Below the pieces are notes generated by a model. That model ran no database searches. It worked only from the letters and a program-made list of their open reading frames with translations, and was not told the origin of the DNA. Shown here one piece after another: positions 24,563 to 29,198 of a DNA stretch of 64,000 bases (positions are counted from its first letter, which is position 1; every line of letters begins with the position of its first letter). Where the stretch lies: assembly GCA_964637115.1 (NCBI GenBank), contig CAZWVL010000002.1, positions 64,001 through 128,000 on the forward strand, read 5' to 3'. The position numbers and the translations under genes were made by a program. This stretch comes from an uncultured Methanosarcinales archaeon (GTDB taxonomy: Archaea > Nanobdellota > Nanobdellia > Woesearchaeales > ARS49).

Positions 24563-24636
24563 GAGCCCGTAGCTTAGCCTGGTGGAGCACTCGACTGATA
24601 ATCGAGAGGTCCGGAGTTCGAATCTCCGCGGGCTCA
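24563..24636 (+). tRNA. tRNA-Ile(GAT)
   Basis: Acceptor GAGCCCG/CGGGCTC, anticodon arm CTCGA-CT-GAT-AA-TCGAG, T-loop AGTTCGAATCT. Confidence 0.95.
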
Positions 24637-24698
24637 TTATTTCTTTTTGCCGCAACGCTTTTAAAGGGCTACCTTTTTATAGACGACAGGTGGGTGAT

Positions 24699-25769
24699 GT
24701 GGCATTTACAGAGATAGCACACGCGTATGACCAAAGCGTCATTGACCGATTTAATGTAGCATTCTCTAGATACTTCAAGCGCACGCTTGACAGGGGCAAG
24801 CCAGATGTTCAAGGACTTGAACACCTTCTAACTATTCCCAAAGACGCTTCAGCTGTTTTAGTATCAATCCACAAAAGCCACCTTGACTATGTAGTGATTC
24901 CTTGGGTGCTCCAGAACAATTTTCTTCCGCCAAGACTCAATGGACCCAGACCTCTTGCAATAGCGGCAGGCGATAATTTGTGCAAGCGCATTGCAAAATG
25001 GGATTTTGGCAAGATCTTGCGCAAGTGCGGAGCATACAAAATAATCAGGAATCCCGAGCCCGGCAAAATCATTGAAACCACAGGAACACTGCTAAAATAC
25101 ACAGGCGAGCTCATGGTGGCAGGAGACTGGTTACTGAATTTCCCAGAACGAAGCAGGTCATACACAGGCGAAATACTTCCTTTTGATCCGGCCGCCATAG
25201 GCATACTCCAAAAGTCAGAAAGACGAGCAGGCAGGCCGGTTGTGTACGTGCCTGTCGCAGTCTCGTACGAACGCGTGCCCGAAGACAGATGGTTCCCAAC
25301 ATTTGCCAAATATAAGTCAAGCGCTTCGCTCATTGGAAAACTCATTTATTATATGCTTGATTGGCCGTTAATTTTGGCGCAGCCGTCTTTAGGAATATGG
25401 AACAAGCCGATAGGGCAAATATCAGTGCGCTTTGGACAACCAATTACCAGCTCAGGAGACAAGGAAACATTTGCCAAGAAACTGGAAGATGAATGCAAAT
25501 CATTGGTAACTGCGTTTTCCACAAACATACTCTGCGCTGCTTTGCTTAAAGGTGGTCCCTTTGAATTAGCTGACAACCTTTTGGAAATTTATGGCGCGCT
25601 AGAAAAGCGCGGAGTTTTGGCAGAAAATATGGGGTTTAGAGAAGCAATCGACCGAGGCTTTCGCTTCCTTGACGCCCCATTCAGAAGATTTTTCAACCAC
25701 GCATTCAGCTTCAGAAAAGACATAGCGGAGTATTATCGGAACTGCATTGCGCATTATTTAAAACCCTAA
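24699..25769 (+). CDS. Glycerolipid acyltransferase, PlsB/PlsC (LPLAT) superfamily
   Basis: Start revised to the GTG after the tRNA. Block I HKSHLDY (HxxxxD), AAGDNL, GAYKIIR, block III FPERSRSYTG and block IV VPVAVSYERVPE. Confidence 0.82.
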   Translation: MAFTEIAHAYDQSVIDRFNVAFSRYFKRTLDRGKPDVQGLEHLLTIPKDASAVLVSIHKSHLDYVVIPWVLQNNFLPPRLNGPRPLAIAAGDNLCKRIAKWDFGKILRKCGAYKIIRNPEPGKIIETTGTLLKYTGELMVAGDWLLNFPERSRSYTGEILPFDPAAIGILQKSERRAGRPVVYVPVAVSYERVPEDRWFPTFAKYKSSASLIGKLIYYMLDWPLILAQPSLGIWNKPIGQISVRFGQPITSSGDKETFAKKLEDECKSLVTAFSTNILCAALLKGGPFELADNLLEIYGALEKRGVLAENMGFREAIDRGFRFLDAPFRRFFNHAFSFRKDIAEYYRNCIAHYLKP

Positions 25770-28012
25770 CAAGTTTCGCCAAATACGTCCTTCACCACAC
25801 CAAGAATTACTTTTCTTAGTAATTCAACAATATCATTTGTATTATATGCATTATTTCCATCCTGATCAAGGTCCACGACACATTCACCTGCAGAAGGAGC
25901 AATGCATGAAGTTGTGTTAGTATTATAAGCTGTCAAGAGCAAAATCATATCACCGACATCAGCGTTTGTGTTATTGTTTAAATCGATATTTGAAATGCAC
26001 GGTGATGAAATGACTTTCACATCCACGCTTGCGTTGGCTGAACTGCCGTTGACAGTCGAAACTGCGGTAAGCCCGTGCATTCCTTCTGACAGATTGACCG
26101 TAATGCCAGAGCCTGTGCCAAGACTGCCGGAAACATTTGAAAACCAGCTGATAGTGCCGGCCGGAGAACTATTTGCAATAAGATTTGTGCCGTTAGAAAT
26201 AAGCACTGAATTTTGCCCAGGACTTAGAATGCTGACGGAAATATTGACGGGAGAATAAATAACGTTGAGTATAATGCTTGTTGTTGCAGATTCATTACCC
26301 TCAGTAACTGTTGCGGCAATTGTGTGGCTGTCAACAGACAAGGTTACGTCAACGCTTGCACCTTCTCCAAGAATTCCTGAGACGTTTGAAGTCCAGACAA
26401 CAGTAAAGTTATCTGAATTGTTGCCAGCAATTAAGGCAGTCAATGTAGTGCTGGAATAAACAGTAGCATTGTCAGCTGGAGCAGAAATGCTAATGTTCAA
26501 AGGTTCATCGGGAGCGGGAGGAGAATTGATTATGATGCTAACATTTGCAGATATAGTCTGATTTCCTTCTGCAGCAGTTGCAATAATAAAGTGAGCTCCA
26601 GGTGTCAGGTTAACAGCAATGCTCTCGCCCACTCCAAGCAGTCCAGAAACATTTGATGTCCATTCCACAGTTGCAGGTGATGAATTGCCAGACACGTTTG
26701 CAGACAGCAAAACTTCTCCTGTTATTGAAGCATTTTCCAAAGGAGAAATAATTGAAATTTCCAATTGCGCAGATGATGCATTATAGCCAAGATATTCAAG
26801 AGCTGCAAGGATATTAATGCGCGGATAACCGCTAATGTTCTTTCCAGTAGCCATAAGAGCTTCCCTGATGTCGGTAGGAGTTAAGGACTGGCTAGTCAAT
26901 CTAGCATATTGCTGCAGCAATGCAACAGCGCCAGAAACGTGCGGAGTTGACATCGAAGTGCCTGTCAATGAGCCGTATTTGTTCGGTGCTTGCGTGCTCA
27001 CGATAGATACACCTGGTGCAAGAACATCAAGCAAAGGACCACGATTTGAAAATGACGCCATAATGTCGGATTTATCTGTTGCACCAACACTGATCGCATT
27101 CGGCGAACAACCAGGATAATTAACTCCGTTAGCGTAACCATTATTGCCGGATGCAAACACACTAGTAATGCCCGCATTGTAAGCTGCATCAATTCCGGAA
27201 TCAAAGTAAGTCGGGCAGTTAGACTGGTTAACATAATTTCCTCCATCACCAATACTGCCGCTGATAACAGTAATGTTATAATCATCCTTGTGAGCAATGC
27301 AAAAGTCAATGCCTGCAACTATATCGGACAACGTGCAGGTATTCGAACAAATCTTTACTGAAACAATATTTACTCCAGGAGCAACTCCTACATACGTGCC
27401 ATTTGCACCGATAGTTCCGGAGACGTGAGTGCCATGGCTTGAAGAATGGACGTCAGTTGCAACATCATCCTCGGGAAGACCATTTGCACAACAATTTGAT
27501 GAACAATAGCACTTTTGCGCAACCACCCTGTTTTGGAATGCAGGATGAGAAGCTTGAATGCCGGTATCAAGCACACAAGCAGCAACGCCTTGGCCGGTCA
27601 GCGACGTGCCATTGATGACAATTGAATTAACAGCAGTTGCATTAATCAAAGGAGCGCTTTCTGACAAAGTCAATGAGAATGCAATGTCGGGGTACACTGC
27701 CTCGACTAATGGATGGTTTTTCAGCTTCTCAACACCCTCATCTGTTGCTTCGACGACCAAAATTGGCAGAGTTTCAAGCGTGCGTTCAGCCTGGACATCG
27801 CCTGTCTGGTCAACGCCTAAAACACTTTCCAGAAGACTTGGACTGTTAACGTCGTCCAGCACTTCCTGCTTTGAAATCTCTTCATTGAGAATTACTACCA
27901 CGCGCTCTGTTGGAATATCATATACTCTGCCAGTAATTGAAGGAGAACTGAAAAATAGCAATGTACCAAATGCAAACAAAACTGCAATACAAAGCATTAT
28001 TCTTGAATCCAT
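25766..28012 (-). CDS. Secreted S8 subtilisin-like protease with propeptide, Ig-like repeats and a C-terminal dockerin-like domain
   Basis: Catalytic triad VLDTG, SHGTHVSG and GTSMSTPHVSG. Three ISI.SP..N...W.SNVSG.LG.G repeats follow, then paired Ca-loops DLNNNTNADVGD-MILLL and DLDQDGNNAYNTND-IVELL. Confidence 0.92.
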   Translation of the reverse strand: MDSRIMLCIAVLFAFGTLLFFSSPSITGRVYDIPTERVVVILNEEISKQEVLDDVNSPSLLESVLGVDQTGDVQAERTLETLPILVVEATDEGVEKLKNHPLVEAVYPDIAFSLTLSESAPLINATAVNSIVINGTSLTGQGVAACVLDTGIQASHPAFQNRVVAQKCYCSSNCCANGLPEDDVATDVHSSSHGTHVSGTIGANGTYVGVAPGVNIVSVKICSNTCTLSDIVAGIDFCIAHKDDYNITVISGSIGDGGNYVNQSNCPTYFDSGIDAAYNAGITSVFASGNNGYANGVNYPGCSPNAISVGATDKSDIMASFSNRGPLLDVLAPGVSIVSTQAPNKYGSLTGTSMSTPHVSGAVALLQQYARLTSQSLTPTDIREALMATGKNISGYPRINILAALEYLGYNASSAQLEISIISPLENASITGEVLLSANVSGNSSPATVEWTSNVSGLLGVGESIAVNLTPGAHFIIATAAEGNQTISANVSIIINSPPAPDEPLNISISAPADNATVYSSTTLTALIAGNNSDNFTVVWTSNVSGILGEGASVDVTLSVDSHTIAATVTEGNESATTSIILNVIYSPVNISVSILSPGQNSVLISNGTNLIANSSPAGTISWFSNVSGSLGTGSGITVNLSEGMHGLTAVSTVNGSSANASVDVKVISSPCISNIDLNNNTNADVGDMILLLTAYNTNTTSCIAPSAGECVVDLDQDGNNAYNTNDIVELLRKVILGVVKDVFGETC

Positions 28013-28101
28013 AGATGTCCTCTTTTAATATCAGAAACACAAGTTCGTTTTTAATAATTGCGATGATAAGTTTTAAATAGAAAGCAACCCGCAATTTCAA
28101 C

Positions 28102-28896
28102 ATGAGGTGTGCATTATTGTTATTTGTTCTTGTCTCAGCAGTTGCTGTTCTCGCTGACACTTTTACATTGCAACCAGACACATCAACGATACAAACTCCT
28201 GGAAACATAATAATGAACTTAAATGCAAGCAACACACAGCCAATCTATGGACTGGAGCTCACAGTCGAAGATGAACCTGAGCGCGCCGTATTCTCGCACA
28301 TAGAAATAACCAGCAGGACAACAGGTGCAATCGTAACAAGCGCAACGCAAGGAAACGACATAGTCAAAGTAGCATTAATTTTGAGCGGAACTGGAAACGG
28401 CATAGCTCCAGGCAACGGTAGCATACTCAAAATCCACTATTCAGCCACGGGCTCAGGAAAAGTGAATTTTGACCCGTCCAACCTGAAAGTGTACAGCAAG
28501 AACGGAACGGCTATTGGCGGAAGCAGTATAGACGACACAGAAGTAACTCTTCAGCCAGGAAGCACATCAAGGAGTTCAAGCAGTTCTGGAAGTTCTGGCG
28601 GCGGAGGAAGCGGGAGCAGCGGAAAAAGTTCCGGCAAGTCAAGCTCAACTGCCAGCACCTCAGCAAACACACAACTTCCATTCCAGTTCACAGAATCAAA
28701 GCCATCAAAAGAAAACCTGGCGCCAACACTGCCTCCAGAAGTAATAGAAACAACAGCAAATGCAGAAATAGCACCAATACCACAGCAAATACCAGAACCT
28801 GGGAAAACATTCTGGCCGTGGATAATAGGAGCACTAGTTTCTCTTGCGGGTGGAGCGCTCCTTGTGTACGCGTACAAAAAACAGTCAAAAATATAG
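28102..28896 (+). CDS. Membrane-anchored cohesin-like protein
   Basis: Signal peptide, a beta domain of about 135 aa (IMNLNASNTQPIYGLELTVEDEP...IAPGNGSILKIHYSAT), a Ser/Gly then Pro/Glu linker, and a C-terminal TM helix with KK tail. Confidence 0.62.
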   Translation: MRCALLLFVLVSAVAVLADTFTLQPDTSTIQTPGNIIMNLNASNTQPIYGLELTVEDEPERAVFSHIEITSRTTGAIVTSATQGNDIVKVALILSGTGNGIAPGNGSILKIHYSATGSGKVNFDPSNLKVYSKNGTAIGGSSIDDTEVTLQPGSTSRSSSSSGSSGGGGSGSSGKSSGKSSSTASTSANTQLPFQFTESKPSKENLAPTLPPEVIETTANAEIAPIPQQIPEPGKTFWPWIIGALVSLAGGALLVYAYKKQSKI

Positions 28897-28898
28897 AA

Positions 28899-29198
28899 TT
28901 AACGAACCAACACTGTCTGCACCAAAGGCACGCCAACAAAATTGCTACCCTGCTGGCACACACTCAGCAATGTTCCCCATTCATTGGTATAAACCTGCTG
29001 TGGGTAAACAGGCTGCAAACCAGCATAAATGCATGCCTCGTTCGGCTGCATTTGCGCGCGCTGAGGACCATAATACCATCTGCCACCGCCACTAGCATAA
29101 TATTGACCGGTCAAAGTGTTCTGCAACTGGATAATGAGGCCTCCGATAGCAACAAGTGCTATTAAGCCAAGAAAAATGACTCCGAGTTTTTGCACCAT
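28899..29198 (-). CDS. Small membrane-anchored protein
   Basis: N-terminal TM helix, LTGQY motif and two Cys. Confidence 0.6.
   Translation of the reverse strand: MVQKLGVIFLGLIALVAIGGLIIQLQNTLTGQYYASGGGRWYYGPQRAQMQPNEACIYAGLQPVYPQQVYTNEWGTLLSVCQQGSNFVGVPLVQTVLVR

Follow-up and report, generated by a model that had tools for sequence, protein, structure and literature searches.

A pair of divergent genes in the window, a 64,000-nucleotide stretch of contig CAZWVL010000002.1, encodes a subtilisin-family protease and a small membrane protein that together may form a tether at the cell surface. The source genome, of 1.27 Mb in 27 contigs and 98% complete, belongs to a DPANN archaeon (Woesearchaeota). 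The protease, named P0001, is encoded on the reverse strand at 25766..28012. It has 748 amino acids (aa) and is recognised from its open reading frame (ORF), from Pfam Peptidase_S8 and from a search for solved relatives as a secreted S8 protease with a dockerin-like tail. The second protein, P0002, has 264 aa and is encoded on the forward strand at 28102..28896. Its ORF, its alignment and the name of an ortholog mark it as a membrane-anchored protein with a single cohesin. The ORF list of the window places both genes exactly at these coordinates, with a gap of 89 bp between them. An initial annotation of this DNA had proposed that the anchored cohesin and the dockerin-tailed subtilisin act as a surface tether. 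The core of that proposal is supported by the homology and fold of the cohesin and by a co-fold of the two modules, with binding as a prediction.

On its sequence, P0001 is an S8 subtilase, since it agrees with the family hidden Markov model (HMM) and also carries the ordered catalytic triad. Peptidase_S8 (PF00082) matches residues 140-390 at 158.5 bits. This catalytic domain (26843..27595, reverse strand) contains the motifs DTG (D149), HGTH (H193) and GTSM (S353), together with SGNNG, which holds the oxyanion N290, and the Asp-His-Ser order is kept. The nearest solved relatives are Tk-subtilisin (E 3e-32) and subtilisin BPN', with E values ranging from about 1e-32 to 1e-30. Peptidase_S8 was the one family returned by Pfam and NCBIfam scans of P0001, P0002 and their excised modules.

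The remainder of the protease has the layout of an exported protein. Its first 27 residues (27932..28012, reverse strand) are its sole hydrophobic window and, by hydropathy, form a signal peptide or signal anchor. The C-terminus reads ...FGETC and has no membrane anchor, as the initial annotation had said. Between the signal and the catalytic domain lies a region of about 110 residues (aa 28-139; 27596..27931, reverse strand). It has no match in a Pfam scan and is probably the subtilase propeptide, judging by its position and the usual subtilase layout. Past the catalytic domain are three tandem immunoglobulin (Ig)-like repeats of about 85 aa each (aa 418-671; 26000..26761, reverse strand), rich in N-x-S/T sequons. 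Direct alignment of the three segments shows them to be 42-49% identical in pairs, with the common motif W(T/F)SNVSGxLGxG; self-BLAST of the region gave no internal matches. In proteases of the same genus, Pfam places Big_7, PKD_4 and K319L-like PKD domains at this position. P0001 has 29 sequons, or 3.9 per 100 aa, whereas across the genome the median is 0.33 and the 95th percentile 1.2. Most of them lie within aa 392-699, and two are inside the dockerin module. Such a density fits, and suggests, a heavily N-glycosylated extracellular protein.

The genome encodes three S8 proteases. The second lies inside an open frame of 2004 aa (contig C1, about 80447-81175, forward strand) and the third, of 385 aa, on contig C5. 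The dockerin-like tail is not present on either of these two.

P0002 has the architecture that the initial annotation described. Hydropathy, alignment and a structural model agree on a signal peptide, a single beta domain, a linker of Ser and Gly, and a transmembrane (TM) helix at the C-terminus. The signal peptide (aa 1-18; 28102..28155, forward strand, as are the features that follow) ends in AVLA and is followed by D19, where hydropathy and conservation suggest that cleavage would occur. The cohesin domain comes next (aa 19-153; 28156..28560), an all-beta unit of 135 aa assigned from Foldseek, VIA-align, profile links and a predicted dockerin-binding face. It is followed by a flexible Ser/Gly-rich linker (aa ~154-190) and a conserved Pro-rich stalk (aa ~191-237), which together occupy 28561..28812. 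In the alignment of P0002 (A1), the stalk residues P193, F196, K203, E204, P211 and P212 are invariant. The protein ends in a TM helix (aa ~238-258), a short basic tail, KKQSKI, and the stop (28813..28896), as read from hydropathy. The helix is preceded by WPW, not PGF, and no archaeosortase was found in the genome with PF09721, the one archaeosortase model run. Anchors of the same genus have 60-90 aa past the helix, which fits a plain TM anchor.

By homology, traced through a solid chain of intermediate sequences, the beta domain of P0002 is a cohesin. An ortholog 56% identical to P0002 bears the NCBI name 'cohesin domain-containing protein', and two of the 13 close homologs match Pfam Cohesin directly (best E 7e-4). 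With E <= 1e-3 as the limit, the profile of the domain built from these 13 homologs (A2) matches 95 proteins out of 1.8 billion representatives. Pfam Cohesin is present in eight of the ten nearest matches outside the family, in seven of them above its cut-off, and mostly on the same stretch. An example is P0029, which A2 matches over residues 29-153 (E 7.7e-21) and Pfam Cohesin over residues 25-154 (75.6 bits). Anchors of the same genus likewise match A2, at E 1e-7 to 1e-17, and score 26-38 bits with Pfam Cohesin, whose cut-off is 24.1. The cohesin domains of the two clades of the genus align cleanly. Searched against PDB sequences, the A2 profile found no cohesin, and its best match (E 0.46) is unrelated.

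The predicted structure of the domain points in the same direction. The AlphaFold2 (AF2) model has nine main strands. Among the Foldseek matches listed (E ~1e-5 to 2e-4), all are cohesins but one YcnI chain. The top 14 rows of VIA-align are all cohesins, with Z scores of 10.8-11.9 and root-mean-square deviations of 2.7-3.2 Å over 125-131 of the 135 residues. The model is thus a nine-stranded beta-sandwich superposable on solved cohesins, at a pLDDT of 69.5 and with Ig-like domains reaching Z 10.0-10.7. The initial annotation had allowed that the domain might turn out to have a non-cohesin fold. The best structural matches are instead solved cohesins, and the HMM link leads to Pfam Cohesin.

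The partner module is the C-terminal part of P0001 (aa 672-748; 25769..25999, reverse strand). It is called dockerin-like from two tail alignments (A3 and the wider A4), an AF2 model, weak dockerin and EF-hand matches, Atlas and the co-fold. In order, the module consists of Cys672, loop 1 (677-688), a helix, Cys703, Cys711, loop 2 (716-727), a second helix and Cys748. Loop 1 is DLNNNTNADVGD, with D or N at positions 1, 3, 5, 9 and 12, just as first reported. A second Ca-binding loop is also present as claimed, but the string given for it started two residues early. In the canonical 12-residue register, loop 2 is DQDGNNAYNTND, with D, D, N, N and D at positions 1, 3, 5, 9 and 12 and Tyr at position 8. 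In HMMER this loop aligns gaplessly with each of the two loops of 6kg9, a solved dockerin.

Two tandem segments, each a 12-residue Ca loop followed by a helix, are therefore present as in a dockerin, and the key columns are invariant in 11 orthologs. These 11 orthologous tails share 53-77% identity with that of the window. Their alignment has 23 invariant columns, among them four Cys (672, 703, 711 and 748 in P0001). Two blocks belong to these columns, D-x-G-D-M-x-L-L past loop 1 and C-x-V-D-L-x-Q where loop 2 begins. The AF2 model of the tail has the loop-helix unit twice, with helices at module residues 17-27 and 56-67 (pLDDT 58). Foldseek run with this model gave dockerins in 16 of 17 rows, none of them significant, at 25-30% identity. 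The A3 profile found a weak dockerin match among PDB sequences (E 0.68). Dockerin_1 accounts for 28 of the 30 named clusters that lie nearest in Atlas (score 0.93). Since the evidence from the family is consistent but borderline, the tail is best read as a pair from the EF-hand clan. It would be a divergent dockerin by architecture and context, not a certified member of PF00404.

A loose pattern for EF-hand and dockerin loops occurs in 10 of the 15,179 six-frame ORFs of the genome. Two such loops 20-50 aa apart are found in just two of these 15,179, P0001 being one. The other is an ORF of 1709 aa (contig C4:76438-81564, reverse strand) with the thrombospondin-type-3-like Ca-binding repeats DPDKDKLTNLQE and DTDGDGWKDGVE. 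It was rejected as a second dockerin on account of these repeats, which are 22 aa apart.

Binding between the two modules is predicted by a co-fold of their alignments. The value taken is the median of three runs, and of the three controls one swapped the cohesin for an unrelated protein. The pair reached an ipSAE of 0.71, while the best control reached 0.01. The co-folding check that had been suggested for the pair thus passes its controls, at an ipSAE mark attained by 58 of 80 solved complexes and by 2 of 110 mismatched pairs. Because cohesin-dockerin complexes are well represented among solved structures, this pass shows likeness to them rather than binding by this pair. The runs agree on at least 95% of contacts, with partner pLDDT of at least 73. 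On the dockerin side the contacts are made by both helices (module residues 16-29 and 56-68). On the cohesin side they are made by residues 31-34, 59-65, 71-79 and 111-119, which belong to strands 3, 5, 6 and 8. The 8-3-6-5 face of cohesins is the dockerin-binding face in solved cohesin-dockerin complexes.

The number of modules bears on what kind of system this is. The genome has exactly one cohesin and exactly one tail. This was established with four custom HMMs (A2, A3, A4 and a two-clade cohesin profile), plus a loop regular expression for tails, and no further tails or cohesins beyond the pair were found by these means in the 98%-complete genome. The suggestion that further dockerin-tagged enzymes share the same anchor is therefore unsupported. 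One cohesin and one tail in so complete a genome point to a 1:1 tether, not to a scaffold for many enzymes. A cellulosome has a multi-cohesin scaffoldin, many dockerin enzymes and carbohydrate-active cargo. That combination is not found here, where the cargo is a protease, and the term 'cellulosome-like' is applicable to the module pair only.

The likely function of the pair, with binding predicted, is that of a dedicated 1:1 cohesin-dockerin tether that holds the S8 protease on the archaeon's own surface. In this model, P0001 would first be exported and would lose its N-terminal signal and propeptide, as expected from the biology of subtilases. This loss would leave the protease without a membrane link of its own. 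Its tail, in which a Ca-binding loop-helix unit occurs twice and two disulfides probably act as staples, would then plug into the single cohesin of P0002, presumably in a Ca-dependent manner. P0002 would be held in the cytoplasmic membrane by its C-terminal TM helix, and the Ser/Gly linker and Pro-rich stalk would project the cohesin outward. Linker, stalk and the three Ig-like repeats would together place the catalytic domain well off the membrane. The archaeon would in this way display a protease with heavy N-glycosylation on its own surface. Candidate substrates may be environmental peptides or the surface of a partner cell.

Related genomes show how far the pair extends. The counts given here for the genus refer to 14 published genomes that were searched, including G156 (GCA_038868995.1, labelled Candidatus Woesearchaeota), and leave aside one unpublished member, G160. 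The tail is present in 12 of them, at E 1e-22 to 1e-37 and in one copy each, the cohesin in 11, and both modules in 10. In one genome, G162, neither cohesin nor tail was detected. Profile searches found neither module in 150 other genomes sampled from the order, which cover 136 families, and in this sampling the cohesin and the tail are confined to the window's genus.

The arrangement of the genes can also be compared. Conservation of the divergent pair had been proposed as a check, and the two genes lie side by side in this orientation in the window, L001, L003/G156, L004, G164 and G163, with a diverged pair in G152. The intergenic spacing is similar in orthologous loci. In G157, G161 and G153, the cohesin and protease genes lie several kb apart on the same contig. 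Wherever a tail-bearing ORF has its protease region present (four of four), it is an S8 protease with Ig/PKD repeats. A fifth such ORF, in G154, is cut by a contig end, so that PKD repeats and the tail alone are visible. All five of these same-genus ORFs keep the four Cys, and from one clade of the genus to the other the two modules diverge in parallel.

Several observations weigh against the tether. The genomes that carry the pair are all closely related, so the counts reflect the system of a single lineage rather than independent replication, and synteny among them is weak evidence. The co-fold pass, moreover, could stem from the model's memory of solved cohesin-dockerin complexes. Three genomes have one module of the pair only. 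G159, which is 100% complete, has the cohesin without a detectable tail, and G155 and G151 have the tail without a detected cohesin, both of the latter being fragmented assemblies. The complete genome would suit an alternative in which both modules are genuine but not partners of one another. The cohesin might then bind a ligand on another cell, or the dockerin a cohesin-like surface of a host, and the result would be cell-cell attachment. The separation of the genes in three relatives would suit it too, as would the two cohesin stretches of the G157 anchor, set beside one tail per genome. Against it, the co-fold passes with both helices on the canonical cohesin face. The joint divergence of the modules between the two clades, the presence of exactly one of each in the window genome and the divergent adjacency kept in six loci also speak for partnership, and this alternative is considered unlikely.

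The remaining objections concern the identity of the modules. The initial annotation had recommended running the Pfam models for both, and neither recognises the window proteins. Cohesin (PF00963) has no match at E <= 10 on P0002, on its domain alone or in the whole genome, and Dockerin_1 (PF00404) has none at E <= 10 on the window tail or anywhere in the genome. Taken by itself, the tail model is of low quality, with a best Foldseek E of 0.6. One could suppose instead that the tail is an EF-hand pair that stabilises or regulates a Ca-dependent subtilase, and that P0002 is an unrelated Ig-like surface protein that adjoins it by chance. EF-hand proteins do score as well as dockerins or better. 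Among 14 family tails, EF-hand_1 (1.4e-4) is a better match than Dockerin_1 (0.038, in one of the 14). In the PDB, the A4 profile finds S100-Z (1.1e-3) about level with 6kg9 (1.3e-3), the sole dockerin matched, and then troponin C and calmodulin. Dockerin_1 itself belongs to the EF-hand clan in Pfam, so that EF-hand matches do not argue against a dockerin, and the nearest Atlas clusters favour Dockerin_1 as described above. Similarly, in VIA-align the non-cohesin Ig-like adhesin domains come within about one Z unit of the cohesins. The fold alone would thus not decide the identity of the beta domain, which is also linked by HMM to domains certified by Pfam Cohesin. Chance adjacency could persist where the entire neighbourhood is syntenic, as it is among these close relatives. 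Against this alternative, the co-fold separates the pair from its controls, the swapped cohesin included. Taken together, this second alternative is quite improbable.

That a low-complexity, Asn/Asp-rich tail and a generic beta domain resemble the two modules by chance, with no functional link, is scarcely credible, for although P0001 is Asn-rich overall, as its sequons illustrate, the rarity of two loops at dockerin spacing, the 23 invariant tail columns with their four Cys and the conservation of the tail throughout the genus all contradict it.

The anchors of relatives are larger than P0002. They measure 525-790 aa, and of the eight anchors detected, six score above the cut-off of Pfam Cohesin. 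Four were translated from the sister clade (L021:5144-6733, L022:1679-3418, L026:2009-3637 and L027:2394-3995) and have 530-580 aa. Past the cohesin they continue with extracellular sequence that contains a Cys-rich module, with CxxC-type runs, and a Pro/Gln/Thr linker. In three of these proteins a TM helix and a cytoplasmic tail of 60-90 aa follow, while the fourth enters a masked stretch. A second cohesin stretch is seen by Pfam in the G157 anchor only, and each genome has one dockerin tail. Directly upstream of this two-cohesin anchor, G157 encodes a membrane protein of 350 aa (L022:3376-4425, reverse strand). Its C-terminus gives a weak dockerin-like match (E 0.006) with the loop DNDGDGLIDF, and the protein may be a second cargo in that species.

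A third gene accompanies the pair. It lies at 28899..29198 on the reverse strand, convergent with the cohesin gene, and encodes a small membrane protein of 99 aa that is a neighbour in every locus inspected. The protein has an N-terminal TM segment and two Cys, and matched no Pfam family. In most loci read, its gene comes immediately after the cohesin gene; in G157 it is about 0.5 kb away. It stays by the cohesin gene where the protease gene has moved (G157, G153 and G161) or is undetected (G159). Of the 13 other published genus members, 12 have the protein, at 53-87% identity, and it is not found in G162, the member that also has neither module. G152 has a weak match elsewhere only, and its contig ends just past the cohesin gene. 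Outside the genus, matches to the protein are weak. From this pattern, the 99-aa protein is a possible third component of the system. A three-gene surface module, made up of a glycosylated S8 protease with a disulfide-stapled mini-dockerin, a membrane cohesin and the strictly co-located 99-aa protein, might even hold the protease at the host contact zone of a DPANN episymbiont, a tentative idea and a doubtful one.

The AT-rich intergenic region of 89 bp between the divergent genes (28013..28101) contains TTTAAATA about 25 bp upstream of the ATG of the cohesin gene, and its sequence suggests that it is the promoter region. On its other side, the protease gene converges with a glycerolipid acyltransferase-like ORF (24582-25769, forward strand), and their stops overlap. 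At the position of this ORF, the orthologous loci have a PF01553 Acyltransferase gene in L004 and a PF02504 FA_synthesis gene in L003. No gene of either type is at the corresponding position in L001.

Cohesins and dockerins outside cellulosomes are already known from archaea, namely Archaeoglobus fulgidus and the anaerobic methanotrophic lineages ANME-1 and ANME-2 (Chadwick et al. 2022, PMC9012536). In a passage that cites Peer et al. 2009, Bayer et al. 1999 and Haimovitz et al. 2008, the same paper gives binding as verified for archaeal modules. Like those modules, the window pair is archaeal, has no link to cellulose degradation and no large multi-cohesin scaffoldin, and places cohesin and dockerin on ordinary surface or secreted proteins. 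The P0002 model has a structural match in 2xdh, the cohesin of A. fulgidus (Foldseek E 3.6e-5, TM score 0.64; VIA-align Z 10.1). The window pair differs from the A. fulgidus and ANME systems in having one cohesin and one dockerin per genome, in a DPANN genome of 1.27 Mb, and an S8 protease as cargo. It also differs in its C-terminal TM anchor, in two modules that both fall under the Pfam thresholds and in a dockerin with four invariant Cys.

A second comparison is with the type I complexes of clostridia, such as CaCohA2-CaDoc0917 of C. acetobutylicum (6kgc-6kgf, 6kg9), 1ohz of C. thermocellum and 2vn5/2vn6 of C. cellulolyticum. These provide the best structural matches of the P0002 cohesin model (Z 10.7-11.9). 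They share with the window pair the duplicated 12-residue Ca loops followed by helices, and the predicted contact is likewise on cohesin strands 3, 5, 6 and 8. Identity to them is low, at 6-10% for the cohesin and 25-30% for the tail, and in the model of the window pair both dockerin helices touch the cohesin. Unlike clostridial cellulosomes, the system has no glycoside hydrolases, carbohydrate-binding module or many-cohesin scaffoldin, and P0002 is anchored by a TM helix rather than by S-layer homology domains or sortase.

A protease as cargo also has a precedent. In Ruminococcus flavefaciens FD-1, dockerin-bearing peptidases are a minority of 222 dockerin proteins (Rincon et al. 2010, PMC2930009). 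Those peptidases belong to a large bacterial cellulosome, whereas in the window genome the protease is the only cargo. The closest likeness is to G152, G157 and the other loci of the same genus, which share the S8 protease with Ig/PKD repeats, the four-Cys tail, the membrane cohesin and the 99-aa neighbour. Compared with these relatives, the clade of the window has an anchor trimmed to 264 aa, with a single cohesin that Pfam misses. A search of one library of papers found no description linking dockerins or cohesins to Woesearchaeota or other DPANN lineages. As archaeal non-cellulosomal modules and the peptidases of R. flavefaciens are already known, the type of system is not new, and the window pair is a strongly diverged, minimal instance of it.

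Cellulosomes are the setting in which cohesin-dockerin pairs are best known, and little is understood of what such pairs do apart from cellulose degradation. A genome this reduced, with exactly one plug and one socket for one protease, offers a natural example of unusual clarity. The modules are small, the assignment of partners is unambiguous, and the predicted Ca-dependent 1:1 binding and surface retention are directly testable. The pair also illustrates that cohesin and dockerin modules which have diverged in such lineages escape the Pfam thresholds. For the Woesearchaeota, whose cell interactions are largely unknown, it adds a concrete surface feature. If the three-gene module were true, it would rank as the smallest cohesin-dockerin system in nature, each genome having a single plug and a single socket, and would offer a way to study how such archaea attach to partner cells or feed on them.

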